Source: Eubacteriales bacterium (GTDB lineage: Bacteria; Bacillota; Clostridia; Lachnospirales; Lachnospiraceae). Taken from it: a stretch of DNA of 64,000 nucleotides. The translations under genes were made by a program, and so were the position numbers. Location of the stretch: positions 68,411-132,410 of the forward strand of contig JAUNHC010000010.1 in NCBI GenBank assembly GCA_030524175.1. Reading direction: 5' to 3'. Every line of letters starts with the position of its first letter. The stretch's first letter is position 1. The notes below the pieces were generated by a model that saw nothing but the letters and a program-made list of their open reading frames with translations, was not told where the DNA came from and searched no databases. Positions 13,700 through 63,678 of this stretch are shown here, piece after piece.

Positions 13700-13730
13700 A
13701 ATATATTTTATGTATCAGCCAAATTTCCTC

Positions 13731-13761: not shown

Positions 13762-13804
13762 GTATTTACAAAATATATACAAAATATCATATGGAGGAAA
13801 AATC

Positions 13805-14281: not shown

Positions 14282-14294
14282 ATACACTTTGTTT

Positions 14295-17435: not shown

Positions 17436-17436
17436 A

Positions 17437-18960
17437 TTATTTCCTCCGATTGCGGTATTCAATTGGTGTCAAGGTAGTCATCTGCTTAAACATACGGAAA
17501 AAGTATTTAGGATTGGGGTATCCGATTTCTTTGGATATCTGTTCTACACTCATAGTGGTATCATCCAAAAGCTCCTTGGCTTTTGCAATACGGATTTCAC
17601 TTAAATATGTATTCAGGCCCTTTTTCATCCGTTCCTTAAGCAAGCTGCTGCACTGTGCCGCTGATACATAAAACTGGCTTGCCAAGGTCTGCAGGGTGAC
17701 CTTTCTGTAATAATTTTCCTGTATATATTTCACCATCTGCTCATAAAGATAATCATCCCCGTAGCTTTTCCTCTGTATTGACAGCAAAATCAGGTTGATA
17801 TATCCGGAAATTTCTTTTTCCATTTTCTCCAGGCTCTCCAAATAGCGGTAGCGTATATAAAAAACCGCCATAATATCGTCCGTTTCCACATGATTCTGCA
17901 CCGCCCAGTCGTCCACTCTGGTCAGTAACTTTTTGCACGCATTTCCTATGTCCAGCAAGGTATCCCTCTGAATGCAGAATCTTTGGAAAAAGCTTCTCAG
18001 TATACTATTTTGATTTTTATTATTATATTTTAAGTCCACCATAATATTTTGAAGCTCATTATCCGTGACTATGTTCCGGGCTTTATGTATGTAATCTTCT
18101 TCATAAAAAACGCGGAACTTATCTGTGATAAAAATATCCCTCAGTATTTTTTCATTTTTCTGATAGCAATAATTTAATTGGGCTAAACCCTGGAATACTT
18201 TTCCCACAGAAACAAAGCATTTATGCTCCCAGGTTTTCCTCTTGATACCTTCCAGAAAGCCCGGTATCTGCTCATATGCTCTTGATATCTCCTCTTTATC
18301 ACCTGTACACAAAACAAAGAATTGCCCGTTGCCTCCCGGATTCTCAAGGCATACAGGGTATATTTGGGAAAAATAACGGTTGGCGCACTCTCTCAGGATA
18401 TTCAAAGCTTCCGGCTTATTGGTATATATGCTGATCAAAATATGCCATCTGTCCCATAGGAATTTTTCATTTTCTTCCTTCTCCGGATTCCATGGCTTCA
18501 CGATCAGCCTCAGGAACTCATTTCCCTCTGTCTGACGTTCAAGGCTTGTCATCTTCTCTTTCATCCTGGCAATGTTTTTCTGTTGTTCCAGTTTCGTCAC
18601 TGCTTTAAGAAGCTGTTTCTCCAGTTCCTCCGGTGAAAAAGGCTTCAGGACATACCCCACCACACCCTTCTCTATAGCCTGACTCATATAATTAAATGCT
18701 TTATATCCGCTGATCACGATAACCGGCAGTCCCGGATATGATTCGGAAAGTCTCTGCAGGAATTCAACTCCATCCATCTTAGCCATTTTCATATCTGTAA
18801 TGACTATATCCGGATTTTTTTCACCGATCACTGAAAGGCCGTCTGCTCCATTGGCTGCTTCCCCAATGCAGATAAATTCCTCTGCCCTGATTTCTTTGAT
18901 TTTGCTCACCAAGCCTAAGCGTATCAATCTCTCATCATCTATTATGACATATGTATACAT
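17437..18960 (-). CDS. YesN-like response regulator (receiver + AraC HTH)
   Basis: IIDDE, ITDMKM receiver; C-terminal IGYPNPKYFFRMFKQMT AraC motif. Confidence 0.9.
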   Translation of the reverse strand: MYTYVIIDDERLIRLGLVSKIKEIRAEEFICIGEAANGADGLSVIGEKNPDIVITDMKMAKMDGVEFLQRLSESYPGLPVIVISGYKAFNYMSQAIEKGVVGYVLKPFSPEELEKQLLKAVTKLEQQKNIARMKEKMTSLERQTEGNEFLRLIVKPWNPEKEENEKFLWDRWHILISIYTNKPEALNILRECANRYFSQIYPVCLENPGGNGQFFVLCTGDKEEISRAYEQIPGFLEGIKRKTWEHKCFVSVGKVFQGLAQLNYCYQKNEKILRDIFITDKFRVFYEEDYIHKARNIVTDNELQNIMVDLKYNNKNQNSILRSFFQRFCIQRDTLLDIGNACKKLLTRVDDWAVQNHVETDDIMAVFYIRYRYLESLEKMEKEISGYINLILLSIQRKSYGDDYLYEQMVKYIQENYYRKVTLQTLASQFYVSAAQCSSLLKERMKKGLNTYLSEIRIAKAKELLDDTTMSVEQISKEIGYPNPKYFFRMFKQMTTLTPIEYRNRRK

Positions 18961-48317: not shown

Positions 48318-49055
48318 TTATATCATTCCGCCGTCAATACAGATCACTTGCCCTGTTATATAAGCTGCCTTTTCTGAAGCGAGGTACGCCACCAGATCAG
48401 CCACTTCCTCCGGTTCCCCTATACGGCCCATGGGAACCGTATTAATTGCCTTGGTTAAAATCTGTTCCGGTACAGCAGCAGCCATATCTGTCCGTATAAA
48501 TCCCGGGGCAACAGCATTCACGGTAATACCTTTACGTGCCAGTTCCTTAGCTGCTGTTTTTGTAAGACCTATAATTCCTGCCTTGGAAGCAGCATAATTA
48601 GCCTGTCCTGCATTTCCTGTAATACCTGTCACTGAAGTTATGTTAATTATCCGTCCTTCTTTCTGTCGCACCATCTGACGGGCAGTATACCGGATAGTAT
48701 AGAAGGTCCCCATCAAGTTCGTTTCAATAACCTTACTGAAGTCCTCCTGTGTCATCCTGGCCAACAGTCCGTCCCTCGCAACTCCTGCATTATTCACAAG
48801 TATATCAAGCCTTCCGTAACGTGCAATAAGCCCATCCACCATGCTCCGGACAGCTTCATGATCCGACACGTCACAGCATATGATTTCTCCTGTCCCCTGC
48901 TTCTCCTGTATCAGCCGGAGTGTCTCCAGTGCTGCCTCCCGGGAACTTTGGTAATTTACTGCAACAACAGCCCCTTCTTTTGCCAGTGCAAGAGCAATGG
49001 CCCTGCCGATTCCTTTCCCTGCTCCTGTTACAAGAGCCACTTTTCCAACTAACAT
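48318..49055 (-). CDS. fabG: 3-oxoacyl-ACP reductase (KR), cluster-specific paralog
   Basis: TGAGKGIG, NNAG, YAASK, VNAVAPGFIRT. Confidence 0.9.
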   Translation of the reverse strand: MLVGKVALVTGAGKGIGRAIALALAKEGAVVAVNYQSSREAALETLRLIQEKQGTGEIICCDVSDHEAVRSMVDGLIARYGRLDILVNNAGVARDGLLARMTQEDFSKVIETNLMGTFYTIRYTARQMVRQKEGRIINITSVTGITGNAGQANYAASKAGIIGLTKTAAKELARKGITVNAVAPGFIRTDMAAAVPEQILTKAINTVPMGRIGEPEEVADLVAYLASEKAAYITGQVICIDGGMI

Positions 49056-49064
49056 AATGTCCTC

Positions 49065-50489
49065 CTATAAGGGAATATTTCCATGCTTCCCACCATTACT
49101 TTCAATACAGCCGTCAAGCTCCCTGATCATAGTCTGCCGTGTATTCACCGGCTCCAGAATCCTATCTATCCATCCCTTTTCCACTGCTTTTTCTAAATTC
49201 AGGAAATTATTCCGGTACTCCTGACTTTTTTCCAGGTATGTACTCTTATAGTTTCCTGATTCCTGTGCAGCTTTCAACTCCTTTTTATACAGAACACCAA
49301 GAGCACTTTCTTCTCCCATTACCGCAACCTTTGCGCCAGGCCAGGCAAAAACCCGGTCAGCTCCAAGTGTTTTGCATCCCATAGCAATATATGCACCCCC
49401 AAAGGATTTTCTTATGATAGTGGTGATCCTCATCACGGATGCCTCTCCAAAAGCATAAAGCAGTTTCGCTCCCTCACGGATAATACCCTTCATTTCCTGT
49501 TCTACTCCCGGCATGAACCCTGGCGTATCAACAAAAGACAATATAGGTATCCCAAAGGAATCACAGGTACGTATAAATCTGCCGCCTTTCATTCCTGCTG
49601 CACAATCCAGCACACCGCCCATGAAGGCCGGCTGGTTTGCAAGAATTCCCACGGTTTTTCCTCCGATTCGCCCAAAGCCTGTAATCAGATTCTCCGCGTA
49701 ACCCTCCATATATTCCAAAAAACTGCTCTCATCCAATATTCTCATAAGGAGTGATTTCATATCATAAATCTGATTTTCCCGTTCCGGTAAAATAGAATAT
49801 GGATCATCCAAAGACGCAAGCGCCTGACAGCTATTGGCTTCACCGGAACCTCCTGTCTCTTTACAAGTCAGAAGCTGTATGAGCTGCTGCACTTTCTTCA
49901 AGCATTCTTCTAAGGTTTCACAGCAAAAATGAGACACACCGCTTTTTTTCCTATGCCCTGCCGCACCTCCTAACTCCTCGTGGGAAACTTTCTGGCCGAT
50001 TGCCGTCCTGACTACACTTGGTCCTGTAATATATAAATGGCTAAGATTTTCCACCGTAAAAACAAAGTCGCATAAACCAGGACCATAGGCAGCACCTCCG
50101 GCACAGTTACCTGCAATAACAGAAATCTGAGGAATTTTCCCTGATGCCTGGATGTGTTCCCTGAAAATCGCACCATAGGCAAGCAAGGCGCCCATACCGT
50201 CCTGAATTTTTGCTCCTGCCGAATCATTGATACAGATCAGAGGACACCCTTCCTGGCCTGCCTGTCTCACAAGGGCCGCAATTTTTTCTCCCTGGTCCCA
50301 TCCAAGAGCTGCTCCATGTATGCAGAAATCCTGAGCATAGGCAAACACCTTTTTTCCTGCGATCGTTCCCGTTGCCGTAATCACTCCAAGCTCATTCTCT
50401 TCTTTTTTCTCCCGAAGATCCACTTCCCTGAAGCTGCCCATGTCCACAAGAAATTCAAGCCACGCTCTTGCTTTTTTTTCATTTTTCAT
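49065..50489 (-). CDS. Acyl-CoA carboxylase/decarboxylase carboxyltransferase subunit (PccB/MmdA-like)
   Basis: DSAGAKIQDG, SGKIPQIS, CAGGAAY, ITGPSVV, ELGGA, DTPGFMPG, FGGAYIAM. Confidence 0.9.
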   Translation of the reverse strand: MKNEKKARAWLEFLVDMGSFREVDLREKKEENELGVITATGTIAGKKVFAYAQDFCIHGAALGWDQGEKIAALVRQAGQEGCPLICINDSAGAKIQDGMGALLAYGAIFREHIQASGKIPQISVIAGNCAGGAAYGPGLCDFVFTVENLSHLYITGPSVVRTAIGQKVSHEELGGAAGHRKKSGVSHFCCETLEECLKKVQQLIQLLTCKETGGSGEANSCQALASLDDPYSILPERENQIYDMKSLLMRILDESSFLEYMEGYAENLITGFGRIGGKTVGILANQPAFMGGVLDCAAGMKGGRFIRTCDSFGIPILSFVDTPGFMPGVEQEMKGIIREGAKLLYAFGEASVMRITTIIRKSFGGAYIAMGCKTLGADRVFAWPGAKVAVMGEESALGVLYKKELKAAQESGNYKSTYLEKSQEYRNNFLNLEKAVEKGWIDRILEPVNTRQTMIRELDGCIESNGGKHGNIPL

Positions 50490-50503
50490 CTGCTGACCAC
50501 ATC

Positions 50504-51529
50504 CTATCTCTTAAGTAACATACACATATAATTCCCTGCCGTATCAAGACCGGTTACCAGTATTGATGATATCTTCTCTTCCTTTCGGCTTAATCCCTTT
50601 GGCAGCCGTCCTTTTTTGAGACATAAAGCTCCTATACATATACTCAATGCAAAGGATGCCCCCAAAGTTTCCCCCAGCATGCTCTTTAATCCGGAAACAG
50701 CTATACTGTTGGGAAACCTTCTGCATACTGTCTCAGCTTCCGCCGCATCAAAGGATGTTCCGTTATCACACATAAGCACCGCTTCCGGTATCTCGTCCTG
50801 CACACATTGGGATAATGCCTGCTCTATAAGCTCGCCTGCGTTTTCATCCAGCTTTTCCAATACAGGATATTGTCCAAGGCTGCTGATACCGCTGCCTTCC
50901 ACGCTGCAGTAGGCTGGCTCCGAATTTTCCCCGCACGTGAGATAAACCACCCCGGCACCTTCATACAGAGGTGCTTTCATACCCGCTGAAGCATTTTCTA
51001 TCAATGAAAACAATTCGTCATGAAATTCATCTAAAGACCCAGTCAATATTCCGTGAGCCTTTCCCCTGGACAGAAGAAGCTTACTGTAAGCAATAGGGTT
51101 TCCTGCTGTGAGCATGGTGCTGACTCCCTTAAGCTTCAGCAAAATACAAGTCTGCCCCACGCATGCGTTGGGTACTGTTCTGGTAAACTCTGTCGGACTG
51201 CATAAATCCGGATTTCCCTGGGCAACCTCATGGCAGAATTTAAGATTGGACGTAATTCCCCTGTACCCGGTAGAAAAAATAGTTCCTATGGAAAAATCAT
51301 CTTCCTCTCTTTCCGCACCTGTGTCCTGCAGCGCCCTGACGGATGCACCAAGACAGAGCTTAGCGTACCGGTTCATCCGCCTCAGCTTTGCAGGCGGCAG
51401 CGAAACATTTAAAGGAAGGGCTTCTCTCTGCCTGGCTGCAGGTTTTCCCGCCTCCAATGCCGCCCACACCATATCCTTGTCATCCCCAAGTGCACTGATC
51501 ATGCCAATTCCCGTTATTACTGTTTTCAT
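50504..51529 (-). CDS. Catalytically inactive ketosynthase homolog (chain-length factor / KS-beta-like)
   Basis: VITGIGMISALG start and SPTEFTRTVPNA motif; no ACAS cysteine; His positions read DNGT and GE. Confidence 0.75.
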   Translation of the reverse strand: MKTVITGIGMISALGDDKDMVWAALEAGKPAARQREALPLNVSLPPAKLRRMNRYAKLCLGASVRALQDTGAEREEDDFSIGTIFSTGYRGITSNLKFCHEVAQGNPDLCSPTEFTRTVPNACVGQTCILLKLKGVSTMLTAGNPIAYSKLLLSRGKAHGILTGSLDEFHDELFSLIENASAGMKAPLYEGAGVVYLTCGENSEPAYCSVEGSGISSLGQYPVLEKLDENAGELIEQALSQCVQDEIPEAVLMCDNGTSFDAAEAETVCRRFPNSIAVSGLKSMLGETLGASFALSICIGALCLKKGRLPKGLSRKEEKISSILVTGLDTAGNYMCMLLKR

Positions 51530-51532
51530 ACC

Positions 51533-51961
51533 CTATTTCTCCTGTCTGCGCATACAGCAAGTGATAGTTCCCTTTGCCACCGCCATATTGTCCAAATAAG
51601 CAACACATCTTATCTTCCAGAATCCACATACCTCACTTAACCGTACCGCATCAATTTTCAATAAGTCACCTGGCACACAGGGGTGCAGAAATTTCATATC
51701 CTCTACCCGGGCCAGCACCGGGTAAGTGTGCGTATCACACTGAGATCCCATTAGGATCAGGGCCGTCTGTGCCATAGTCTCTATTAAAAGAACGCCGGGG
51801 AACACAGGATTTTCCGGAAAATGTCCGGCGCACCAGAATTCATTTTCTGTAATCTTTTTAGTCCCCTGCACTTTTTCCCCGGGAATTAAAATTTCCACCT
51901 GGTCAGGCATAAGCATAGGTTCCCGGTAAGGAAGTACCTTTTTCAATTCCTCTCTGTTCAT
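51533..51961 (-). CDS. fabZ: 3-hydroxyacyl-ACP dehydratase (DH)
   Basis: LPYREPML, GHFPENPVFPGVLLIETMAQ. Confidence 0.9.
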   Translation of the reverse strand: MNREELKKVLPYREPMLMPDQVEILIPGEKVQGTKKITENEFWCAGHFPENPVFPGVLLIETMAQTALILMGSQCDTHTYPVLARVEDMKFLHPCVPGDLLKIDAVRLSEVCGFWKIRCVAYLDNMAVAKGTITCCMRRQEK

Positions 51962-53169
51962 ACACTGCCTCCTTTTCCTATCAGAAGGCTGGCTGTATTC
52001 CCGCCAAAGGCAAAAGAATTTGACAACGCATATTCAATGACGCAAGGTTCTGAATCACTGTTTATATTGATTCCTTGCCCTTCCTCCAGCTTTGTTTCCA
52101 GGTGAGGCATGGGAAAAAGGAGCTGGTGTCCCATCATCAATAAGATCGCAGCCAGTTCAACAGCACCGCTGGCCCCCATGCAATGGCCGGTCAGAGCCTT
52201 GGTTGAATTCATATGGACTCCCTTGGGAAATAAGCTTTGTACCGCTTTAGACTCCATAGCATCATTCAACGCTGTCCCTGTACCGTGTGCATTGATATAA
52301 TCAATTTGATCCGGTGCAATACCGCCCTCTTCCAACGCCATTTTCATAGATGCTTTTGCACCTGAACCGTCAGGGTCAGGACTGGTTACGTGGTAGGCAT
52401 CGTTATTTAATCCATATCCTAATATCTCTGCATAAACCGGGACTCCTCTTTTTTGGGCTGATTCCATGGTTTCCATAAGAAAAAATGCACTTCCTTCCCC
52501 AATATTGATCCCATCCCGGTTCTGATCCATAGGGTTTGTAATTCCGCAGCTTAATGCTTTCAGCACATGAAATCCTGCTGCGCCCACTTCCGTAAGGGGA
52601 TCAGTACCTCCTGCCACAGCCATGTCACATATTCCCTCCTTGAGGAAATCATATGCCATACCCAATGCAGTAGTTCCCGAAGCACAGGCTGCCTCACAGG
52701 CATACACACCGCCCCTTACACCTACATTTTTCTGAAGCCAGTACAAATACTGAGACTCACGTTCAATCCAGCCGCCGGCATCCTTTCCTTCCATGCATTT
52801 TTGGGTATATCCCATAAATCTGGACGTGGTCCCCAGAAGAGAACCACAGAAAACAGACGCCTTAGGCCCCAATTTTTCCATCTCTTCGCTGGAAAACCTT
52901 CCATCCTGAAACATTTCCTTGAGCGCTTTCTCCATGAGCCATTCCATACGGCTCTCTTCATACGGTTCCTGGGGAGTACAGGGCAAAGGAATATCTGCCT
53001 GTCCGAAATAGGAGGTACGCAGCTGCTCCACCGGGTAAATATCTGCCTTCCGGATTCCCAAGACTCCTCTCCGGCAATTTTCAAAAAACCTTTCTTTCCC
53101 TATCCCGTTGCTTGCCGCAACACCGAATCCGGTAATTACAATCCGTCTGTCAGATATCATATCTGTCAC
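51958..53169 (-). CDS. Active beta-ketoacyl-ACP synthase (FabF / KS-alpha-like)
   Basis: ACASG (Cys), AHGTGT (His), TGHCMGASG (His), SNSFAFGGN. Confidence 0.92.
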   Translation of the reverse strand: MTDMISDRRIVITGFGVAASNGIGKERFFENCRRGVLGIRKADIYPVEQLRTSYFGQADIPLPCTPQEPYEESRMEWLMEKALKEMFQDGRFSSEEMEKLGPKASVFCGSLLGTTSRFMGYTQKCMEGKDAGGWIERESQYLYWLQKNVGVRGGVYACEAACASGTTALGMAYDFLKEGICDMAVAGGTDPLTEVGAAGFHVLKALSCGITNPMDQNRDGINIGEGSAFFLMETMESAQKRGVPVYAEILGYGLNNDAYHVTSPDPDGSGAKASMKMALEEGGIAPDQIDYINAHGTGTALNDAMESKAVQSLFPKGVHMNSTKALTGHCMGASGAVELAAILLMMGHQLLFPMPHLETKLEEGQGININSDSEPCVIEYALSNSFAFGGNTASLLIGKGGSV

Positions 53170-53444
53170 CCTTTCCTTGCTTCAATGAAATCCGCCACCT
53201 GATCAATGGAGCGCAGGATTTTAAAATCCTCATCCTTTACCTTTATTTCATATTTTGTCTCAATGAGAACAGCAAGTTCCAGAGAATCTATGGAATCCAG
53301 TCCCATCCCGTCATCTCCGTCCTCCATGTCGCTGGAAAACAACGGCCAGTCATACTGGTAATTTTCCTTATCAAAATCTTCCATCTCCACCGCTTCAAGG
53401 ATCCCCTCAAGCAGCTCTTCTTTTAATTTCATATTCGTACTCAT
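53166..53444 (-). CDS. Acyl carrier protein
   Basis: Acidic 92 aa protein with GLDSIDSLEL phosphopantetheine site. Confidence 0.9.
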   Translation of the reverse strand: MSTNMKLKEELLEGILEAVEMEDFDKENYQYDWPLFSSDMEDGDDGMGLDSIDSLELAVLIETKYEIKVKDEDFKILRSIDQVADFIEARKG

Positions 53445-53553: not shown

Positions 53554-53856
53554 TTATAATATGTCAATATTTCCGGCACCATTAGAACAGCTTACGTATG
53601 ACCCTTTGCCGCCTGCAACATTGTCCAAATCATCTTCAGACATCTCAGCTTCGCCGCCTAAGTATTCTTTTGCTTCTGCTGCTGAAATTTCAAATCCCAT
53701 TTTTTTTGCCAAAGGCTCCAACGCCTCCAGTGTTTCCTCTGTTACATTTTCAAGAGCGGTTCCCGGTGCATTGTATTTTAATACAATCTCCTTGAATTCC
53801 TTGAAGCTTTCCTCATCGGCTGTTACTTTGCTGTAAAAATCCATAAATTTACTCAT
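53554..53856 (-). CDS. Nif11-like RiPP precursor A5 (core KGSYVSCSNGAGNIDIL)
   Basis: Leader KFMDFY...AKKMGFEIS...EMSEDDLDNVAGG. Confidence 0.88.
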   Translation of the reverse strand: MSKFMDFYSKVTADEESFKEFKEIVLKYNAPGTALENVTEETLEALEPLAKKMGFEISAAEAKEYLGGEAEMSEDDLDNVAGGKGSYVSCSNGAGNIDIL

Positions 53857-53935: not shown

Positions 53936-55315
53936 CTATTCCAATATTCTCTCTATTTTCTCTTTATAGTGTCCCTGCCAAAAAGTGCAGGCAATGGCAT
54001 CTTTCCCAAAATAGTCATTGGCTGAACACAGCGGATTTGCCCTGCAGCTTTTACACTGCAACCGGTTTTCACAGTTTCCGCATTCGGGATTATGCTCAAA
54101 TAAATCTTCCTGAGCTTTATCCACCAGCTCTGTATAGGAAGAATTGGTAAGAAGCTCCTCTAATGAATATTCCCAAACATCAGGCGCCTCATCTTCAACA
54201 GATGTACCGCTCATGGCAATACATGGAATAAAACGGCCGTCTGCCATTAAATATGGATGACGCCGTGCACTCTGGCAAAGATACTGACTACCATTCTCTC
54301 CTTGTTCAGACGGAAGCTTCCAGGAGCCGTCTTTATACCCAAAATAAAATCCCATAATTCCTATTCCGATGGGATATTCATCTTTTTTATAAAGAGACAG
54401 TAATTGTAAATAGTTATCGAAAAGCACCTCTGTACTTAATTTTCTTTTATTTTCTTCCTTTTTCCAATTTCCTGCATCCATAACAGGACCTAGCTTCCAC
54501 ATATCCACATCAAGTTCTTTCATAAGCTCGTAAGTGGCAAAAAGCGAGTCTATATTATTTTCATGAAAAACAGTTGTGACAATAACTCTGTACCCTTCTT
54601 TTTTTAAAAGTCTGACAGCATCAATAGCTTTTTTTTCGCTTCCCTCTACTCTGCGAAGCCATTCATGGCAGCCAACTCCGTCAAAGCTGATCAAAAAAAT
54701 AGGATTAAATTCCCTGACCCTGCATTGTTCTACAAACTCATCATCTATCAGCATGCCGTTGGTAAACAAATTGATGATATGTATTTTTCGTTTCAACAGC
54801 ATATCAACAATTGTCCAGAAATCTTTTCTGACCAATGGCTCTCCGCCTGTAAGAGCAACTGCAGAAATATTTGCTTCAACCATTTGTTCAATGATCTCCT
54901 CACACTTTTCCAAAGGTAGCTCTCCGTATTTATTCTCTCCACTGCAAACATAACAATGCCTGCAGCGGAGATTGCATTTCCCTGTTATAGACCAGAGGAC
55001 AGAATGGATATACCTGGCCGATGTTTTGTGGTATCTCTGCCAGGAACTCAGCATTGTCTTTTCGCCGGAATATTCCAGGATTCCCAGCTCGACAGCTTTC
55101 TCTGCCAGTCTCCGGTATCTGCGTGGAAAAAAGGGAGAATCTGCCTCAACACCTGAAGCGGCCAACTCCAACGCATAAAACTGCTCCTTGCTTAACATCA
55201 GCCGATTACGTCCCTGACTGCCAATATCAGTTAATCCATAGGGTTCATTTTCCCATCCTCTTAATGCAAACTGATTCTTAAGGTGATAGTACTTCTTGTT
55301 CCTCTCCATTTCCAC
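53936..55315 (-). CDS. Radical SAM/SPASM peptide maturase
   Basis: CNLRCRHC, LTGGEP, SFDG; SPASM Cx12Gx4C...Cx2Cx5Cx2C-x18-C; ~100-aa N-terminal extension (RRE-like). Confidence 0.9.
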   Translation of the reverse strand: MEMERNKKYYHLKNQFALRGWENEPYGLTDIGSQGRNRLMLSKEQFYALELAASGVEADSPFFPRRYRRLAEKAVELGILEYSGEKTMLSSWQRYHKTSARYIHSVLWSITGKCNLRCRHCYVCSGENKYGELPLEKCEEIIEQMVEANISAVALTGGEPLVRKDFWTIVDMLLKRKIHIINLFTNGMLIDDEFVEQCRVREFNPIFLISFDGVGCHEWLRRVEGSEKKAIDAVRLLKKEGYRVIVTTVFHENNIDSLFATYELMKELDVDMWKLGPVMDAGNWKKEENKRKLSTEVLFDNYLQLLSLYKKDEYPIGIGIMGFYFGYKDGSWKLPSEQGENGSQYLCQSARRHPYLMADGRFIPCIAMSGTSVEDEAPDVWEYSLEELLTNSSYTELVDKAQEDLFEHNPECGNCENRLQCKSCRANPLCSANDYFGKDAIACTFWQGHYKEKIERILE

Positions 55316-55357: not shown

Positions 55358-55642
55358 TTAATAATAGACATAGACATCGCCTTTCCCGCCTGCTACTGAA
55401 TCAAGCTCATTCTCTGAAAGTTCCATCTCATCCACACTGAAAAACTCTGCTGCTTCCTCTGCTGTTATATCAAACCCGCACCTCGAACAAAGTGGTACCA
55501 GATCTTCAAAGGTTTCCCTGGAAACTTTATTCATAGGCGTGCCCTTTTTATTATGCCGAAGATATATATTTTTGAATTCTTCTTCAAGTTCTTTATCAGC
55601 TGTAATTGTGTTATAAAACTCCATGAACTTATTATCTCTCAT
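55358..55642 (-). CDS. Nif11-like RiPP precursor A4 (core KGDVYVYY)
   Basis: Leader ends ELSENELDSVAGG; ATG after GGAGG. Confidence 0.88.
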   Translation of the reverse strand: MRDNKFMEFYNTITADKELEEEFKNIYLRHNKKGTPMNKVSRETFEDLVPLCSRCGFDITAEEAAEFFSVDEMELSENELDSVAGGKGDVYVYY

Positions 55643-55994
55643 GTAAATAGCCTCCAATCGTAATTTTTCGCTTTCCCTTCAACGAACCAATCTCAATTTC
55701 TATTGATTGTGCCCCCTCACCATCGTAGACATAGTTCTTACCTTTACCTCCAGCAACAGAATCCAGATCATCCTCGTCAAGTTCTATCTCTTCTCCGGAA
55801 AAATACTCCACCGCTTCCTCAGGCTTAATGGAATATCCCATATCTTCTGCCATTTTTCCTACTTCCTTCCATGCCTCTTCCCCAATATCGGCAAAAGATG
55901 CTGCATTAGGGTGGTATTTCAGTAAAATCTCCTGAAATTCCTTTTCTTTGCCTGACTCTGTAAGCTTTTCATAAAACTGCTGAAATTTATCCAT
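55632..55994 (-). CDS. Nif11-like RiPP precursor A3 (core KGKNYVYDGEGAQSIEI...)
   Basis: Leader ends ELDEDDLDSVAGG. Confidence 0.85.
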   Translation of the reverse strand: MDKFQQFYEKLTESGKEKEFQEILLKYHPNAASFADIGEEAWKEVGKMAEDMGYSIKPEEAVEYFSGEEIELDEDDLDSVAGGKGKNYVYDGEGAQSIEIEIGSLKGKRKITIGGYLHER

Positions 55995-56005
55995 TTAATC
56001 TCCTT

Positions 56006-56296
56006 TCACGGATAATGATGGTATGTATTATATTTGCCACCAGCAATACTATCCAGTTCTTCATCACATAGTTCCCGTTCATCTTCGCTGAAAAATTTGT
56101 TCAGATCCTCTTTTGTTATGGTATATCCGGCCGCCTCCGCCAACTTCAAAAATCCTTCTTTGGTTTCTTCAGATGCGTGATTAATGGACTTTCCAGAGTC
56201 TCCGCTGTCTTTTACAATCTGTTTAAACTGTCTCCAGATTTCAGGATTTTTCTCCATGTCCTGATAAAATGCCTGGACCTGATTCATATTTTTCAC
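56006..56296 (-). CDS. Nif11-like RiPP precursor A2 (core KYNTYHHYP)
   Basis: Leader ...LAEAAGYTIT...ELCDEELDSIAGG. Confidence 0.88.
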   Translation of the reverse strand: MKNMNQVQAFYQDMEKNPEIWRQFKQIVKDSGDSGKSINHASEETKEGFLKLAEAAGYTITKEDLNKFFSEDERELCDEELDSIAGGKYNTYHHYP

Positions 56297-56607
56297 CCCC
56301 AGCTTTCACTTGTCACATTACCATTTGCATCATAATAAATATCATGGTCGCCTTTACCGCCTCCGGCCACAGCATCTAACTCGCTTTCCTCCAGCTGTCT
56401 CTCGCCCTGGAAATATTCAATAGCTTCTTCAGATGTGATATGAAACCCAAGTTTTTCAGCCAAAGGCTCCAATGCGTTAAAGGTTTCAGCCGAAGCATCC
56501 TGAATAGGTGTATCAGATGAATTGTACTTAAGGAATATCTCTGCAAATTCCTTCCTTGCTGCCACATCATCGGAAATCCTTTTATAAAACTCTTTATACT
56601 TGTCCAT
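56293..56607 (-). CDS. Nif11-like RiPP precursor A1 (core GKGDHDIYYDANGNVTSESWG)
   Basis: Leader ...LAEKLGFHIT...QLEESELDAVAGG. Confidence 0.88.
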   Translation of the reverse strand: MDKYKEFYKRISDDVAARKEFAEIFLKYNSSDTPIQDASAETFNALEPLAEKLGFHITSEEAIEYFQGERQLEESELDAVAGGGKGDHDIYYDANGNVTSESWG

Positions 56608-56624: not shown

Positions 56625-57521
56625 CTATTCTGCTGCTTTTATAAAGTTATATTGAAGTTTTTCTTTTACAGTTACCTGCTTTAATATTTTGTCTGCAAAA
56701 GCAAGTGCCGGAAGATTCCCCTCATACATAGCATAGACTCCCCGCCTGCATCCCTCATTCCAGAACTGTTCCATGGTTTTTGCAAACGGCAGAAGCACAG
56801 TACCTTGGCTGATCATCTTCTGACAGGTTGAAATCTGCTCGAAGACAACACTGCTTTTGTCCACTTTGGATACCAGGCTGTATGCTGCGATCTCATCTCC
56901 CCGCACACACAGAAAACTCATGGTATCTGATACAGGCGTCCGTTTGCCTTCCAGAAATCCTCTGACATGAAGCTGATTACCATATTCATTTCCCTCTGAT
57001 CTCCGCAGCTTTTCCAGCCATTCCTCTCCGCATTCCCGGAATGATATTGTTACAAATCCTTGCTGTTCCAGCCAGGCGGCCAGCCGCTTTCCCTTACGGT
57101 CCATGTACTCATTCCAATGTATGAAGTCATCCCTCACACAAGTAAATAAGTGTACCTTATCTTTAATCATAAAGCCTTCCTGCTCAACCAATTTCTTTAG
57201 ACAGTCATACCATTCAGACTCTTCCTGTATTGAAAATTTCCACTCCTTCGTGCCTTTCTTTTCCCTAAGCTCATTGCGAAGCAGCATACCTGCATATCCT
57301 TTTCTGCGGAATTCCTCTCTCACAAACAGAAAACGGATATTCCTGTATTCACGTTCGTCTGTGACCAGGCAAAATCCCGCCGGCAAATGTTCTGCAAAAA
57401 GTACATGGAGACTTCCTTGAGTCAACTGTGCCTCTCTTGCAATTAAATCAACAAAGCGGCTTCTTAAATCCAGGAACAGAATCTGAAATTCCAGATATGA
57501 AACTTCTCTAAATGAAATCAT
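56625..57521 (-). CDS. Tandem GNAT-fold acyltransferase
   Basis: Motif A LFVREEFRRKGYAGMLL in the N-domain; second degenerate GNAT-like domain (EIAAYSLV..VFEQIS..EGNLPALAF); ATGA overlap with upstream gene. Confidence 0.75.
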   Translation of the reverse strand: MISFREVSYLEFQILFLDLRSRFVDLIAREAQLTQGSLHVLFAEHLPAGFCLVTDEREYRNIRFLFVREEFRRKGYAGMLLRNELREKKGTKEWKFSIQEESEWYDCLKKLVEQEGFMIKDKVHLFTCVRDDFIHWNEYMDRKGKRLAAWLEQQGFVTISFRECGEEWLEKLRRSEGNEYGNQLHVRGFLEGKRTPVSDTMSFLCVRGDEIAAYSLVSKVDKSSVVFEQISTCQKMISQGTVLLPFAKTMEQFWNEGCRRGVYAMYEGNLPALAFADKILKQVTVKEKLQYNFIKAAE

Positions 57522-58378
57522 TCTAACCCCCCTTGACACCATTCACATATGGAACGGCTGCACAGCCAAAGTTTCCTCCGGTAATCATCCATTTCACTGA
57601 ATATTTTGCTCCGGCTCCACTTCTCCAGGCTCTCGGCTGCCAGTACTGCTGTCCTGGAAACCACCTCATGAGTTTCCTCCGGAAGTTCATTCATATAAAA
57701 TTTAAGCCGCCTTCCCGAAATCCCTCTTAATCCCAGAAAACTTAGAAACCATTCCGCCCGATATTCTCCAAATGCATATAATATTCCGAAAAAATCTGCA
57801 ATACACTCGTCATAAAGGTTATTTCTGGAGGATCCCAATACCTGTTTCGTAAAATAATGAGTACATTCATGCTCCAGCCTTATTTTCATAGATTTGTCTT
57901 TCCATTCCTCTTCGGTTATGCCTATTTCTTCAGCCGGAACATTGCTATAATCCTTGTTTGACAGAATAATAAATCGTGTTTTTTTGCCGTACGCAAAGGA
58001 TGCTCCTGTACTTTCCAGTCCCTGGGGACGCTTACCCTTATATATGATCTGTACTACCAATGTCTCAAAATCCTTCTGACATCCTGCCTTGATCACCGGT
58101 ATCCCGCCAACTGGTGTATGGTGTAAGACCAGCTCTACCAAGTCCGGTTCTTCAAAAGTCATATAACGTTCCACAGGCACCATATAACGGTTCAGAGCAT
58201 CTGCCGCCGACTTTGCTGCTGCATGATCAAAGATTCTTTCCCACGCCTTTAGGAACTCAATGTCACATGCTGGTTCTTTCCCCGGTTCAGGTATAATAAA
58301 AGGGTTGCGGAAATACTCCTCCAGAATAGAAATATCTTTTTCCCTTGCCCCCAAACTTTTCAAAAATTCCTTTTCCAT
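57518..58378 (-). CDS. HExxH-containing protein (gluzincin-like metal site), function unknown
   Basis: HECTH followed by NNLYDECIAD. Confidence 0.7.
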   Translation of the reverse strand: MEKEFLKSLGAREKDISILEEYFRNPFIIPEPGKEPACDIEFLKAWERIFDHAAAKSAADALNRYMVPVERYMTFEEPDLVELVLHHTPVGGIPVIKAGCQKDFETLVVQIIYKGKRPQGLESTGASFAYGKKTRFIILSNKDYSNVPAEEIGITEEEWKDKSMKIRLEHECTHYFTKQVLGSSRNNLYDECIADFFGILYAFGEYRAEWFLSFLGLRGISGRRLKFYMNELPEETHEVVSRTAVLAAESLEKWSRSKIFSEMDDYRRKLWLCSRSICEWCQGGLE

Positions 58379-58389: not shown

Positions 58390-60552
58390 TTATACCAGCT
58401 GCCGTTTAGCCATTTGTGCAAACATGCCGTCCATACTCATCAACTCCTCATAAGTTCCGGATTCAGCAACCTTCCCCTGATGAAGATATACAATGCGCGA
58501 ACAGTTTCTTATGGTAGACAGGCGATGGGCGATCACAATTCTTGTACACCTGGTCTCCTCCAATGACTTCACCACTATAGCCTGGGTAATATTATCCAAA
58601 GCGGATGTGGCCTCATCAAACATGAGAATACTAGGATCTGCCACCAAAGCCCTGGCTATGAGCAGTCTCTGCTGCTGTCCGCCGGAAAGGCCCCCGCCGC
58701 CTTCGGAAATCATAGTAAACATGCCCATAGGCATATTTCGGATATCTTCAGCAAAACCGGCCTTTTCCGCTGCATTCCAGGCATCCTCTATGGTCAGCCA
58801 GGGCGCACAGATTACAATATTGGAATAAATATCACCGGAAAAGAGCTTTCCGTTTTGAAGTACCACTCCAATTTTCTGCCGTACGCTGCGCACATCAACT
58901 CCGGCCAAGTCATTTCCGTCAAAGTACACAGCGCCTGATTCCGGTTTTTCGAATCCAAGCAGCAGACGGAACAAGGTTGATTTTCCGCAGCCTGAGGAAC
59001 CTACTATCCCAAGATACTCTCCCGGCTTAATATGCAGGCTTAGTTCATCCAGGACATACGGCATGTCCTCGTTATAACGGAACCTTACCTGGTTTACTTC
59101 TATTTCACCCTCTAATTCCCCTATCTGTTTTTTTATCCCGTCCGATTCCGGCGCCGCTTCCAGGATTGGCTTAAGCATATCCACTGCAGGCCGCAGAGAG
59201 GAAATCTGTGACGCAAGTCCAGACAGAGCAAGCACACTTGCTGTAAACGCTGCAAAAGCAGAGTTAAATGCGATGTACTGGGATGTACTCATCTCCCTGC
59301 TGTAAGCTGTTAAATACAATACAATAGTGCCTCCAAAAGATACAAAATTCGTAAGGGCCGTGGACATCTGAAGAAATTTTCCCGGAATCAAGGGCTGTCT
59401 GCTGTACAAATCTGCCCATTTCCGAAATGCTCTTACTTCTGCCCCTGCCACCTTTATTTTTGTGATTCCGTCTAAAAACTGGAAGACCATGCCGGAAAGC
59501 TTATTGCTCACTTCGTTTTCCGCTTTTGTCTGTATCATCTGGTAATATGCTGTCAGCAATGACACACCCAGCAGTAAAATAATGATCACCAGTGACGGCA
59601 GAAGCATTGAGGAATGTATCTGTGTAATCTGAAACAAATACAGGAAAGAGAACATGGAACCTAGTAAAGTAGGTATCATAGCTCCGCCCAAAATTGTGCA
59701 GATCTGATTGACTGAGTTCGCCCTTGAAGTCATTTCACCGGAATCATATTCCTTGAAAAAGCCTGTGGGAAGACTCATGATCCTGGCCCATACAGCCCCT
59801 TGGGCATTCAATTCCAATTTATTGCCTATACGCATCACCCACAAGGTTCTGGACAGTCCCATAATTGCAGAAATAACGGTTGTTCCTACCAGAAGAACCG
59901 TGATTCCGAAAAGTGTGTCAGGTGTGCCTGATGGAACCACAAAATTAAAGATAAACTGCGTAATGGAAGGAAGGATCAATCCGATCAGTCCGACCACCAG
60001 GCTTATTCCCAGCAGACATAAAATATCAGCACGTGAAAATGACTGCGCCAGAAATCTCCAGAAATCTTTAATTGTCAGACTCCGGCTTTCAAAGGGCCGG
60101 TAAATACAGTAGGCTGTATCCCTGAATCCTCCTGCATTTTTCTTGGTAACCTTAACTGTATCCTCTCCCTGTATCCAGATATAGCCTCCGCCTGCTGCCG
60201 GAATCAATGCACGTATTTCTCCTGTCTCATGCCAGCATAAAAGAGGCATGGAACCATCCTTCCACCATTTCCCCTCCAGGGAAATTTTTCTTCTGAGAAT
60301 TCCCGTGACGGACATAGCGTACTGAACTTGTTCTTCATCACCGCTGATATCTTCAGGAATCTCAATAGGCTTCATTTGAAAAAAATCCAAAATCCGGTTT
60401 ATTTCCTGGCCAAGAGATGTGCTTGAATCTCCTTTTTCATTTTCCTTCGGCTGCAGCGAATGATAAACGTGCGTAGAAGAATATTGAAACATTTCTCTGT
60501 CAATGCGCTTTTTTTCTTTTAGTTTTTGAGAAAAATCATTCAAATATCTCAC
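58390..60552 (-). CDS. NHLM/NHLP-type bacteriocin ABC transporter, subunit without active peptidase
   Basis: Degenerate C39-like N-domain without Cys, 6 TM, GSSGCGKST, LSGGQQQR, FDEATSALD. Confidence 0.9.
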   Translation of the reverse strand: MRYLNDFSQKLKEKKRIDREMFQYSSTHVYHSLQPKENEKGDSSTSLGQEINRILDFFQMKPIEIPEDISGDEEQVQYAMSVTGILRRKISLEGKWWKDGSMPLLCWHETGEIRALIPAAGGGYIWIQGEDTVKVTKKNAGGFRDTAYCIYRPFESRSLTIKDFWRFLAQSFSRADILCLLGISLVVGLIGLILPSITQFIFNFVVPSGTPDTLFGITVLLVGTTVISAIMGLSRTLWVMRIGNKLELNAQGAVWARIMSLPTGFFKEYDSGEMTSRANSVNQICTILGGAMIPTLLGSMFSFLYLFQITQIHSSMLLPSLVIIILLLGVSLLTAYYQMIQTKAENEVSNKLSGMVFQFLDGITKIKVAGAEVRAFRKWADLYSRQPLIPGKFLQMSTALTNFVSFGGTIVLYLTAYSREMSTSQYIAFNSAFAAFTASVLALSGLASQISSLRPAVDMLKPILEAAPESDGIKKQIGELEGEIEVNQVRFRYNEDMPYVLDELSLHIKPGEYLGIVGSSGCGKSTLFRLLLGFEKPESGAVYFDGNDLAGVDVRSVRQKIGVVLQNGKLFSGDIYSNIVICAPWLTIEDAWNAAEKAGFAEDIRNMPMGMFTMISEGGGGLSGGQQQRLLIARALVADPSILMFDEATSALDNITQAIVVKSLEETRCTRIVIAHRLSTIRNCSRIVYLHQGKVAESGTYEELMSMDGMFAQMAKRQLV

Positions 60553-60555
60553 CCC

Positions 60556-62736
60556 TTATTCGCTTTTTACCAATGCGGCATATTTGCCGTCAAGTGCAGT
60601 AAGTTCTTCATGTGTGCCGCGTTCCATCTCCTGCCCGTATTCCAAAAGGATGATCTCGTCCGCATCACGGATCGTTGACAGCCTGTGTGCAATTACGAGA
60701 CATGTAATTCCCCTGCGCTTTACCGCATCCATGATCTTTTTCTCTGTATAGGGATCCAGCGCTGATGTTGCTTCATCCATGATCAGCACAGACGGCTCCG
60801 CCGCAAAAGCCCTGGCAATTTCAAGACGCTGACGCTGCCCTCCTGAAAAATTGCTTCCGCCCTCTTGTATCACGAAATCATATCCATTTTTTCTTCCGAC
60901 GATCTCATCATGTATACAGGCATCTCTGCAGGCCTCAACAATGGTTTCCTCACTCATTGTCTCATCCCACATAGAAATATTTTCCCGTATGGTTCCTTCA
61001 AACAAAGAGATACTCTGGTCCACCATTGCAACAGAATTTAGTATGACATAATGATCCACCTCACTTCTGTCTTTACCGTCAAGGAGGACTTTGCCGCTGT
61101 TTGGAGGATATAAACCTGCTATGATCTTTGCCACTGTTGATTTACCGCTTCCGCTGCCTCCCACCAACGCGATCATATCGCCTGGCTTTGCGTGAAAGCT
61201 CAGGTTCTTGATAAGAGGCTCTGCCAGCGGGCTGTATCCGAAGGTAAGATCTGAAAGAGTTACGTCACCTTTTAATTTCTCGTATACAGTTTGGGTTTCA
61301 CGCTCCTCATCCAGTTGACCCTCTTCTTCAAAACTGATGTCAACATCTGTAGGGTAATTCATTACATCTTCCACTCTTTCCATATTCCCGCCCATATCCT
61401 GAAAAGCCTGCATGGAATTTACAACCGCTCCAACGGGCTGAAGAAAAAGACTTACAAATCCCTGAAAAGCCATCAATGTTCCGATTGTGAACTTACCCAC
61501 AAAAATCTGATATACACCCATGACTAAAATAGCGCAATTGCACAGACCTGTAAGTATCTGGGGGGCAATCCCGATATAGGCATTATTTTTTTTGAGCACA
61601 AGCAATGAATTATTATATTTTGTCTGGTATCCTGATATCTTTTCAAAGAAACCGAATTCTGCACCGCTTGCCTTAATGGTTTCTATCATGGAAATACCTG
61701 CAACCATGATTCCTGAAAGCTTTCCTGAATCCCTCTGGATGTTTTTCACTGCGTTAGCGTTCTGTTTTGACACCTGTTTCATTATCACCACGTTTATGAC
61801 AGCCATACCCATTCCCACTAATGCCATGGGTATATCATAATAAAGCATTAGAATGAAATACATTCCGATCATTACAACATTCAATGCTACAGGAGCTATG
61901 GTCACGCACAAAGTATCCGCAATTGCGTCAATGCTGGTCAAACGTGCGGAGATATCTCCGGCAAAACGCTGGGCAAAAAAGCCTATCGGAAGACGAAGTA
62001 TATGCCATATAAAAGATGAGGAAGAACCTATGCTCATTTTTGCCCTGATCTTATAGAGATAAATGCTCTGCAGTGCCTCAAACAGAAAACCCGCAAACAA
62101 TACAAGGATCATCCCCTGAATCATAGGCATCATCCACTCCGGTGCATTATTCAGAAGGATACTGTCAGTAAACATTTGATAAAATACCGGTTTGATCATG
62201 CCGATCACAGCCAGCAGGAAACCCATGGTAAGGACAAAACCCAACGGAGCCTTGGAGCCGTCAAGCCTTTTTTTCAAAAAGCCCATAATACTTTTTGGTT
62301 TACCCTCAGGTTTAAAATCAGCCATTGGCTTAAACGTCATGGATACGCCGGTAAAAGATTTGTCAAACACCTCCATCGGTACTTTCACAGTCCCGCCTGC
62401 GGGATCATTGAGAATTGCATAATCCTTCCTGAAACCGCACAGCACTACAAAGTGATTAAAGTTCCAATGGATGATCATAGGAAAATCTTCCGGTTTCTTT
62501 TCCTTTAGTTTTTGTACGCCGATCCGGAAGCCTCTCGCCTCAAGGCCGTGATGTCTGGCCGCCTTTAATATATATTTAGCTGTGCTTCCATCTCTGGATA
62601 CATTGCAGTCCACCCTCAACTGCTCAAGGGGAACAAACTTTTTATAGTAGGCCAGAATCATCGCTAAAGATGCTGCCCCGCACTCCAGGGCCTCCATCTG
62701 CAGAATCACCGGCACTTTTACGATTTTTCTTCCCAT
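60556..62736 (-). CDS. NHLM/NHLP-type peptidase-containing ABC transporter (C39 + TMD + NBD)
   Basis: QMEALECGAASL (Cys), HWNFNHFVV (His), NDP (Asp), GGSGSGKST, FSGGQRQR. Confidence 0.93.
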   Translation of the reverse strand: MGRKIVKVPVILQMEALECGAASLAMILAYYKKFVPLEQLRVDCNVSRDGSTAKYILKAARHHGLEARGFRIGVQKLKEKKPEDFPMIIHWNFNHFVVLCGFRKDYAILNDPAGGTVKVPMEVFDKSFTGVSMTFKPMADFKPEGKPKSIMGFLKKRLDGSKAPLGFVLTMGFLLAVIGMIKPVFYQMFTDSILLNNAPEWMMPMIQGMILVLFAGFLFEALQSIYLYKIRAKMSIGSSSSFIWHILRLPIGFFAQRFAGDISARLTSIDAIADTLCVTIAPVALNVVMIGMYFILMLYYDIPMALVGMGMAVINVVIMKQVSKQNANAVKNIQRDSGKLSGIMVAGISMIETIKASGAEFGFFEKISGYQTKYNNSLLVLKKNNAYIGIAPQILTGLCNCAILVMGVYQIFVGKFTIGTLMAFQGFVSLFLQPVGAVVNSMQAFQDMGGNMERVEDVMNYPTDVDISFEEEGQLDEERETQTVYEKLKGDVTLSDLTFGYSPLAEPLIKNLSFHAKPGDMIALVGGSGSGKSTVAKIIAGLYPPNSGKVLLDGKDRSEVDHYVILNSVAMVDQSISLFEGTIRENISMWDETMSEETIVEACRDACIHDEIVGRKNGYDFVIQEGGSNFSGGQRQRLEIARAFAAEPSVLIMDEATSALDPYTEKKIMDAVKRRGITCLVIAHRLSTIRDADEIILLEYGQEMERGTHEELTALDGKYAALVKSE

Positions 62737-62757
62737 TATGTCCTCCTGTGTGGGTAT

Positions 62758-63678
62758 TTACGGCATTAAAAGCCGAATAGGATTGACCTCACTTGTTATC
62801 ACAATAATAGAGCATCTTGTACCAAGCTCTACAGCCAGTTCTTCTCCTTTTTTGTTAGACCATTCATAAGAATTTTTTGAGTCGGGATTCAAGTTTATTT
62901 TAATATGTACTTCCACACAGGACGTATCCGGAAGAAAGTCCTTTACATATGACATTGTGCCCATATGACGTATAATACTGTCCTCCGTGGCAGGAATGCT
63001 TCCTACAGAAGTAACCACCCCGGACATATACCCATATTCTTCTCTCGGGGCATAATTGGGAGAAATCTGAGCCTGCATACCTGCGCGGATTCCTTTTGCC
63101 TGTTCCATAGGAACAAATGCAATGATTTCGTTATATCCTCCATTGGAAGTTTCGCCTATGATAGAAGATACGATTGCTCCGTCGGTAATATCGGTTCCCA
63201 CTGCTGCAATACTCTGGACAGATCCTGAGTAACTGCTTCGCAATACTGTTTCTGCCTGGTATTCCTCAATCTTACGCTGTATCTTTTGTTCCATTAACAG
63301 CTGCTCATCTGTATTTTTCTCCATGACAGCCATCTCATCTTTCATATTCTGGATTTCTTCCAAGACAGCTTCATTTGACAGAGTCATCAAAATGTCACCG
63401 GTGGCCACAACCTGGCCCTCCTGCACCAAAACATCACTGACGATTCCGTCACACATAGCGTAAACATTCTGGATATCCCTGTTACTGAACAAAACACCTT
63501 CTATATTGACTCCATTTGTGATCGTATAGGTAAAGGCCCATACAACAAAGGACACTGCACCTGCCAGAATTGCCAAATACAACAGCCAGGTTGCCGGTCT
63601 CATGATTTTTACCTGCTGATTAAGCTGTTCCGGCGTGGCCACATGGTCCGTCGCCGTTTTCCTGAAAATATCTGCCAT
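62758..63678 (-). CDS. NHLM/NHLP bacteriocin system secretion protein (HlyD-like)
   Basis: IFRKTA...TPEQLNQ N-terminus, TM, biotinyl-lipoyl-like GIVSDVLVQEGQVV, SPNYAPREEYGYMSG. Confidence 0.88.
   Translation of the reverse strand: MADIFRKTATDHVATPEQLNQQVKIMRPATWLLYLAILAGAVSFVVWAFTYTITNGVNIEGVLFSNRDIQNVYAMCDGIVSDVLVQEGQVVATGDILMTLSNEAVLEEIQNMKDEMAVMEKNTDEQLLMEQKIQRKIEEYQAETVLRSSYSGSVQSIAAVGTDITDGAIVSSIIGETSNGGYNEIIAFVPMEQAKGIRAGMQAQISPNYAPREEYGYMSGVVTSVGSIPATEDSIIRHMGTMSYVKDFLPDTSCVEVHIKINLNPDSKNSYEWSNKKGEELAVELGTRCSIIVITSEVNPIRLLMP

Follow-up and report, generated by a model that had tools for sequence, protein, structure and literature searches.

Known ribosomal lipopeptides either borrow ordinary fatty acids, as the selidamides do, or use polyketide synthase (PKS)/FabH machinery of actinomycetes. 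In selidamide biosynthesis (KspN, PhaN, NpuN), a GNAT-type maturase acylates lysine or ornithine side chains of precursors that carry GG leaders, and the acyl groups (C10-C16) are drawn from primary metabolism; phaeornamide, a selidamide, carries a 3-hydroxyacyl group, and one member carries 3-hydroxydecanoyl (PMC8784127). The clusters for goadvionins, lipolanthines and lipoavitides, which belong to the peptides made by ribosomes and modified after translation (RiPPs), encode acyl-building enzymes, and an acyltransferase moves the chain bound to an acyl carrier protein (ACP) onto the peptide (PMC8784127, bioRxiv 10.1101/2023.10.25.564083). Here we describe a six-gene cassette in a 64,000-nucleotide stretch of DNA, called the window throughout, from a gut-type Firmicute of the Lachnospiraceae (Eubacteriales bacterium, NCBI GenBank assembly GCA_030524175.1, contig JAUNHC010000010.1, positions 68,411 to 132,410). 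It encodes an ACP, a ketosynthase (KS), a catalytically dead KS paralog that resembles a chain-length factor (CLF), a ketoreductase (KR), a dehydratase (DH) and a carboxyltransferase (CT), but no enoyl reductase (ER). The reading we favour, to which we give roughly even chances, is that this ER-less type II fatty acid synthase (FAS)/PKS-like cassette makes an acyl-ACP, with the state of the beta-carbon set by the cassette, for lysine lipidation by a GNAT enzyme.

The cassette forms the distal part of a single operon with genes for a GNAT protein, RiPP precursors, a radical SAM enzyme and exporters. In gene content, this operon resembles a lipidating RiPP cluster of the selidamide kind, except that it brings acyl-building genes of its own. 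As in selidamide-type clusters, a GNAT gene occurs together with GG-leader precursors, here five of the Nif11 type in which GG is followed by lysine. Selidamide clusters lack ACP, KS, KR and DH genes of their own, whereas the window's cluster encodes all four and a CT. Goadvionin, lipolanthine and lipoavitide clusters differ from it by using type I PKS or FabH-centred FAS parts in actinomycetes, and none has been reported to contain a KS/dead-KS pair, to use Nif11 precursors or to come from a Firmicute. Because the cassette lies inside a lipidating RiPP operon, a dedicated acyl chain is a sensible reading, and to that extent an initial annotation made from the DNA sequence is supported. Its further step, from the missing ER to a polyene chain, does not hold across the family, since the DH has been lost in relatives of the cassette.

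Pairing of an active KS with a dead partner is known from other systems. The aryl-polyene (APE) core has in common with the cassette an active KS and dead partner (the KS/CLF pair ApeO-ApeC), a dedicated ACP (ApeE), a KR (ApeQ), a DH (ApeI/ApeP) and the lack of an ER (PDB 6QSP, 7F28). It differs in that the cassette's partner is FabF-like and 341 aa long (ApeC has 240 aa), its DH is FabZ-type, its KR is FabG-type rather than FabG2-type, and ApeR, the ligase, LolA/MMPL and the glycosyl/acyltransferase set are missing; the host here is a Firmicute, and the proposed destination of the chain is a ribosomal peptide. The ishigamide proteins Iga10-13 and Iga16 (PDB 6KXD), which comprise a KS, CLF, ACP, KR and DH, form a similarly minimal set without an ER, one difference being that the DH is dispensable in sister cassettes of the one described here. 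The cispentacin proteins AmcF-AmcG, a heterodimer of a KS and a CLF-like protein, perform a single C2 elongation (PMC10698177), which sets a precedent for pairs of this kind that make no long chain. The window lacks a cyclising AmcE-type enzyme, and on the AmcF model, where the cut-off is 325 bits, its KS reaches 189, less than the host FabF. Finally, chains B and C of PDB 9S5H, a '3-oxoacyl-ACP synthase' pair for which our literature search found no publication, likewise pair an active KS with a dead one, and in the latter, as in the family described here, Glu occupies the second His site and an FPNTVxNA motif is present. Outside its own family, the window's paralog has its best match, of the reference sequences compared, in 9S5H_C, although the two are only 23% identical and 9S5H_C is closer to FabF (34%).

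Alignment of the KS and its paralog with the host FabF, Listeria FabF and E. coli ApeO supports what the initial annotation had said of both proteins. The KS has an intact Cys-His-His triad (Cys162, His295 and His329) and retains Lys324 and the gating Phe388. The paralog keeps a KS-like N-terminus (MKTVITGIGMISALG) and the motif noted earlier (residues 111-122, SPTEFTRTVPNA) but has lost all three catalytic residues, with Met139 at the Cys site, Cys254 at the first His site and Glu287 at the second; Thr replaces the gating Phe, and Lys282 is retained. The Cys-site residue is M, I, V, L, A or S in all 21 members of the paralog family and is never the Gln expected of act-type CLFs, from which the pair also differs in that its KS is closer to FabF. 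The scan of the cluster genes turned up neither a cyclase nor an aromatase. Relative to FabF, the dead paralog is about 65 residues shorter, and the host keeps its own FabF on another contig.

Domain calls on the window proteins were made with Pfam and NCBIfam models, and the E. coli CFT073 APE cluster (L030) was read to confirm that NF006618 is the ApeO family and NF006617 the ApeE family. The KS scores almost equally on the fabF model TIGR03150 (271.8 bits, under the equivalog cut-off of 493.75) and on the ApeO model (270 bits, below the cut-off of 407), whereas host FabF scores 614.8 and 240 bits, respectively, and E. coli ApeO reaches 556 on its own model. Against solved structures (PDB phmmer), the KS is closest to Firmicute FabF (207 bits), followed by 9S5H_B (198), ApeO 6QSP (160), Iga11 6KXD (155) and the act KS 1TQY_A (144). 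The paralog scores 65.5 bits on TIGR03150 and 23.4 bits on PF13723, the ApeC-type CLF family (cut-off 25); its profile matches FabF (100 bits) and 9S5H_C (95) far better than AntE (42) or Iga12 (35). These structure-based scores stand in for Iga11/12 and the act KS/CLF, which the KS and partner trees leave out. The initial annotation had suggested a phylogenetic comparison with APE proteins and FabF. In the trees, ApeO comes out as sister to the KS family on weak support (SH-aLRT 87), and ApeC is nested among the paralogs at the end of a very long branch (3.6 units). The paralog and ApeC have an SPTxF...V.N..VG stretch in common, but hhalign gives the paralog profile a probability of 43% against ApeC and 99% against FabF. 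An AlphaFold2 (AF2) model of the paralog (pLDDT 88) retrieved only FabF/FabB-type ketosynthases among its top 50 Foldseek matches, with no solved CLF in that set, so that the structure search does not discriminate, and the nearest solved structures of both the KS and the paralog are FabF (TM about 0.85). Thus, the pair appears to be a FabF-derived lineage with faint APE affinities that lies outside the act, APE and ishigamide families.

The dead paralog defines a family that is rare and occurs mostly in Firmicutes. A search of 5.8 billion clustered proteins gave 52 full-length relatives (30-43% identity), all from Firmicute-like sources, and an exhaustive profile search of 1.84 billion returned 278 representatives at E<=1e-30. 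Only three of the 37 species genomes of the window's genus contain the family, which is therefore an accessory, patchily distributed element. Of the 22 related loci surveyed (numbered with L below), all that contain both genes have the paralog downstream of an active KS whose Cys-His-His triad is intact. In 16 loci, the KS and paralog genes adjoin each other or have just the DH gene between them; extra genes between KS and DH occur in a few non-RiPP loci (L002, L003, L007 and L008), and those of L008 include a thioesterase and a BtrH-like protein. The KS and paralog trees are congruent, and pairwise identities in the two families correlate (r=0.92). In addition, there are natural KS::partner fusions, P0104 and P0115 (767 and 770 aa), in which the KS forms the N-terminal half and the partner the C-terminal half, with the partner domain at about residues 414-770 (E 1e-76 and 6e-68). 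Adjacency, congruent trees, correlated identities and natural fusions together support a physical KS/partner unit. Other fusion representatives of 740-860 aa were also seen, and those of the P0150 type resemble PDB 9S5H_C (FPNTVVNA, GECW).

The same gene order recurs in the 22 loci of other organisms, and the cassette genes are therefore not chance open reading frames (ORFs). GNAT genes, precursors and C39-ABC exporters co-occur with the cassette in 11 related loci, and the cassettes linked to them form one clade in a concatenated KS plus partner tree (support 100/99), in which the GNAT gene is conserved together with the cassette. L028 and L029, with which the window clusters, are arranged as ACP-KS-DH-partner-KR, and in L028 the CT follows; a same-genus genome outside the tree, L035, shares this arrangement and has the CT. 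A sister group, comprising L004, L005, L006, L010, L011, L012, L015 and L018, carries ACP-KS-partner-KR without DH and CT. Synteny between L004 and the window extends from the flanking binding protein across HlyD, the two ABC proteins (61-66% identity) and DUF7005 to GNAT, and nevertheless L004 has neither DH nor CT. No substitute DH or ER was found in the unassigned ORFs of L004, L005, L015 and L018; the ORFs scanned in DH-less loci were a sigma factor, MatE, GNAT, SpoIIE, OEP, HlyD and PBP proteins. Side genes also surround the GNAT homolog in the loci nearest to the window's cassette, L028 (5920-8030) and L029 (5930-8051), namely a SAM methyltransferase and a STAS-domain protein, and no precursor genes were seen in the fetched stretch of either locus.

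Overall, the DH is absent from eight of the 11 related RiPP-clade loci and from L016 and L017, which are linked to a nonribosomal peptide synthetase (NRPS), making ten of the 22 loci. Two changes of DH state suffice on the tree, and they are read as losses because the DH-bearing lineages are basal; the position of the DH gene between KS and paralog, as in the window, is the ancestral one. By contrast with CT, FabD, thioesterase and DH, which vary among cassettes, the KR is found in all complete cassettes, and no cassette has an ER. The cassette thus always brings a KR and never an ER, and only the DH is kept or lost, which argues that the cassette itself determines how the last beta-carbon is left.

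Outside the RiPP clade, seven loci have DH-bearing cassettes, and their sources include Enterococcus, Roseburia, Lachnoclostridium and S. oralis. One of them, L008 (Enterococcus sp. BWB1-3, 4606-18283), contains this KS/partner pair and encodes, in order, ACP, KS, a 408-aa ORF, a 4HBT thioesterase, a 256-aa ORF, a BtrH_N/DUF4872 protein, DH, partner, KR, a second SDR, a class-III aminotransferase, an FAD amine oxidase and an ABC/FtsX exporter. The product of such a cluster could be an amino-lipid, and partial versions are found in L002, L003, L007, L009, L001, L019 and L014 (S. oralis). The eighth locus without RiPP genes, L013, has a DH-bearing cassette with an NRPS condensation fragment, a 5S/biotin subunit and FabD. 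In L016 (2588-20779, Lachnospiraceae bacterium YSD2013) and L017, a DH-less ACP-KS-partner-KR cassette is flanked on one side by an AccDA-type carboxyltransferase, an Sfp phosphopantetheinyl transferase (PPTase), a glycosyltransferase and a thioesterase, and on the other by a nitroreductase and a 2797-aa NRPS. These two loci look like NRPS lipopeptide clusters that use the same acyl module.

The initial annotation was also right to report ACP, FabZ and FabG proteins, although the FabG gene lies outside the region it delimited and the CT gene went unlisted (Table 1). Neighbouring cassette genes overlap by 4 bp or are separated by gaps of 3-14 bp, and the six genes (48318-53444) are translationally coupled. 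They are on the same strand as the RiPP genes, between precursor 5 and the regulators. Among the precursors, the third ORF (55632-55994) continues for about 30 residues past its KGKNYVYDG core, in a long tail that may not be real, and overlaps the start of the fourth.

Table 1. Genes of the acyl-building cassette and of the surrounding RiPP operon (window coordinates).
Feature	Coordinates	Strand	Description
ACP	53166-53444	minus	92 aa; PP-binding, Ser51 in LDSIDS; dedicated acyl carrier protein
Ketosynthase (KS)	51958-53169	minus	403 aa; both ketoacyl-synt domains (E 2e-34 and 2e-21); predicted active elongating KS
FabZ-type 3-hydroxyacyl-ACP dehydratase (DH)	51533-51961	minus	142 aa; FabA/FabZ fold, His47/Glu61
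KS paralog, CLF-like, catalytically dead	50504-51529	minus	341 aa; Met139, Cys254 and Glu287 at triad sites
12S/MmdA-type carboxyltransferase (CT)	49065-50489	minus	474 aa; PF01039, E 3e-132
FabG-type 3-ketoacyl-ACP reductase (KR)	48318-49055	minus	245 aa; Tyr154, Lys158
Fifth Nif11-leader precursor	53554-53856	minus	core KGSYVSCSNGAGNIDIL
Radical SAM/SPASM peptide maturase	53936-55315	minus	459 aa
Four Nif11-leader precursor genes	55358-56607	minus	cores start with Lys after GG cleavage site
GNAT-type acyltransferase	56625-57542	minus	305 aa; presumed user of acyl-ACP
DUF7005 protein	57518-58378	minus	286 aa
ABC exporter, C39-peptidase ABC exporter and HlyD-type adaptor	58390-63678	minus	

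The best NCBIfam match of the ACP is the ApeE-type model NF006617, on which it scores 50 bits (cut-off 70; E. coli ApeE, 89.5) compared with 31 for a generic ACP model, and on TIGR00517 it scores 32 bits whereas the host AcpP scores 96. The KR and DH are FabG/FabZ-type enzymes and not of the ApeQ/ApeI/ApeP type. The KR exceeds the TIGR01830 cut-off (314.4 versus 297.75 bits), has YAASK at residue 154 and is 59% identical to the host FabG. The DH passes the NF000582 cut-off (114.6 versus 113 bits) and scores 110.6 bits on TIGR01750 (cut-off 155); the protein is too short for its tree to be resolved.

No ER or FabD is encoded in the window, as the initial annotation had stated. Searches of the window found no homologs of host FabD, FabV or NMO/FabK, no MDR-type reductase (31 occur in the genome, none of them on the window's contig) and no acyl-CoA dehydrogenase, a family for which the whole genome was also negative. 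An ER gene upstream, which the initial annotation had named as a finding against its proposal, was likewise absent, as was FabD, from the 9 kb between the window end and the contig end, which hold a 192-aa ORF, a periplasmic binding protein, an MFS protein and rpoC. Among the 22 related loci, none has an ER and two (L002 and L013) have FabD.

The host's primary genes lie on another contig, C108 (L020:3132-10606), in the order acpP-fabD-fabG-fabF-accB-fabZ-accC-accDA, without fabH and fabK. Its only recognisable ER is a complete three-domain FabV/TER-type protein of 414 aa that stands alone at C76:25798-27042, and two PPTases, two ketoacyl-ACP synthase III (KAS III) genes and biotin carriers are encoded as well. 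The initial suggestion that host enzymes might act in trans is therefore sound with respect to FabD, which the host has, but not with respect to FabK, in place of which it has the FabV/TER-type enzyme. A FabK search with TIGR03151 yielded a single NMO-family protein (369 aa; C82, L027:5433-6542) at 93 bits against a cut-off of 453, and this candidate was rejected; it is nearest to 7E1Q-type '2-nitropropane dioxygenases' (227 bits, with FabK at about 60), which correspond to H. pylori FabX. The FabI Y-x6-K motif was not found in any host ORF. The assembly comprises 5.95 Mb in 119 contigs, compared with 2.0-4.1 Mb for 36 species genomes of the same genus, and is either an unusually large genus member or a mixed bin (stated contamination 2.7%).

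If the favoured reading is correct, host FabD would load malonyl onto the dedicated ACP, and the CT, with a biotin carrier from the host, would raise the supply of malonyl-CoA. Either acetyl or an acyl thioester of the host may serve as primer. The active KS would pair with the dead paralog in a heterodimer that elongates the chain, with the paralog shaping the acyl pocket, and the KR and DH would process each new beta-keto group. The GNAT enzyme would then transfer the chain to the conserved N-terminal lysine (Lys1) of the five Nif11 cores. For the window, an alpha,beta-enoyl chain is predicted, namely 2-enoyl or possibly 2,4-dienoyl or short polyenoyl, where the latter two would be made only if the KS re-accepts an enoyl intermediate. 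For the DH-less sister clusters, the simplest product would be a 3-hydroxyacyl chain, which is the usual lipid of Firmicute NRPS lipopeptides. The presence of a private FabG everywhere, together with an ACP that has diverged strongly from AcpP, suggests that host enzymes do not serve the cluster ACP, and this would exclude the host FabV too.

Several points weigh against this scheme. The host FabV/TER-type ER could reduce the enoyl-ACP in trans, since we infer only from the private FabG that host enzymes are unable to use the dedicated ACP; the KS/paralog heterodimer is likewise deduced from the patterns of sequence and gene order given above. The cassette encodes no KAS III, acyltransferase or ligase for primer loading, and the partner has no Gln for decarboxylative priming. 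Moreover, the CT stands alone in the operon without a biotin-carrier partner and might instead be a decarboxylase.

Supply of malonyl-CoA is nonetheless the probable role of the CT, which is a variable accessory among related cassettes. A minor alternative is that it makes a primer by decarboxylation. Comparison with other loci argues against this, because the homologous CT of L013 is paired with a 5S/biotin subunit and FabD, and L016 has an AccDA-type CT in its place. The L013 genes directly upstream of the cassette (18-7722) encode an NRPS condensation fragment, an MFS protein, an LGT-like protein, CT, a 5S/biotin protein with PYC_OADA, HMGL and biotinyl domains, and FabD; this set represents a complete supply line of the transcarboxylase type for malonyl-CoA. 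A CT paralog in the host (42% identical) adjoins an AcpS-type PPTase on contig C51 (L026:7695-18020), within a polysaccharide cluster that includes an AMP-binding enzyme, two SDRs, an 81-aa ORF and KAS III. This CT subfamily seems to recur near carrier-protein-linked genes.

Among alternative explanations, the one that survives best, although we consider it unlikely, is that the cassette is a dedicated branch of ordinary fatty acid synthesis in which host FabV and FabD act in trans to give a saturated chain, with the KS/partner pair determining how long it becomes. The host does encode FabD and a complete FabV/TER-type ER, the KR and DH of the cassette closely resemble the FabG and FabZ of primary metabolism, DH-less relatives could borrow host FabZ, and characterised selidamides carry plain C10-C16 acyl groups (PMC8784127). 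If host enzymes served the cluster ACP, however, the universal private FabG would have no explanation, an ER has not been recruited in any of the 22 loci although CT, FabD, thioesterase and DH come and go, and the window's ACP is strongly diverged from the host AcpP.

Less probable again is a highly reducing type II PKS of the APE/ishigamide type that starts de novo on a short primer, iterates to a long conjugated polyenoyl-ACP and passes the chain to the peptides. The enzyme set is equal to Iga10-13/16 and to the Ape core, the ACP has its best match on the ApeE-type model, the KS scores on the ApeO and fabF models are about equal, ApeO is a weak sister of the KS family and the partner shares a sequence stretch with ApeC. 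Against this stand the KS score below the ApeO cut-off, the higher rank of Firmicute FabF than of ApeO and Iga11, the FabG/FabZ character of the KR and DH, the preference of the partner profile for FabF in hhalign, and the top 50 Foldseek matches, which are FabF/FabB-type throughout. The DH is missing from most RiPP-clade relatives and from both NRPS-linked loci with no substitute DH, and therefore polyene building is not the conserved job of the KS pair.

That the cassette is a separate lipid or polyketide pathway that merely adjoins the RiPP genes is very improbable: cassettes do exist without RiPP genes in eight loci (seven with the aminotransferase/amine-oxidase/BtrH-type set or partial versions of it, and L013 with its NRPS fragment) and beside an NRPS in L016/L017, but in the window the cassette shares strand and 4-bp overlaps between precursor 5 and the regulators, and its association with GNAT, precursors and C39-ABC exporters holds across 11 loci of one well-supported clade.

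The KS/dead-KS cassette is a variation on two known ideas, CLF-type KS partners and RiPP/FAS hybrid lipopeptides, and is not categorically new, although our literature searches found no published description of the paralog family or of such a cassette in a Nif11/GNAT RiPP cluster. It is improbable, in our estimation, that in this anaerobic Firmicute a FabF-derived pair, which evolved independently of the APE and ishigamide systems or is very distant from them, works with KR and DH and without an ER to build iteratively a conjugated polyenoyl-ACP that the GNAT enzyme places on Lys1 of radical-SAM-modified Nif11 peptides. If true, polyene lipidation would be seen for the first time on a ribosomal peptide, and highly reducing type II PKSs would gain a third lineage, a Gram-positive one.

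More generally, the ACP/KS/dead-KS/KR module is compact and portable, and both DH and CT are optional in it. In Firmicutes of the gut, rumen and mouth, it appears to provide ribosomal peptides, and in relatives an NRPS, with custom acyl chains. The DH-plus and DH-minus sister clusters constitute a natural experiment, in which enoyl and 3-hydroxy lipid tails, respectively, are predicted. The short list of CLF-like proteins gains an uncharacterised family, KS partners in which the second His site is occupied by Glu, and if this dead partner sets chain length, the pair would offer a small, genetically encodable tool for defined peptide lipidation.

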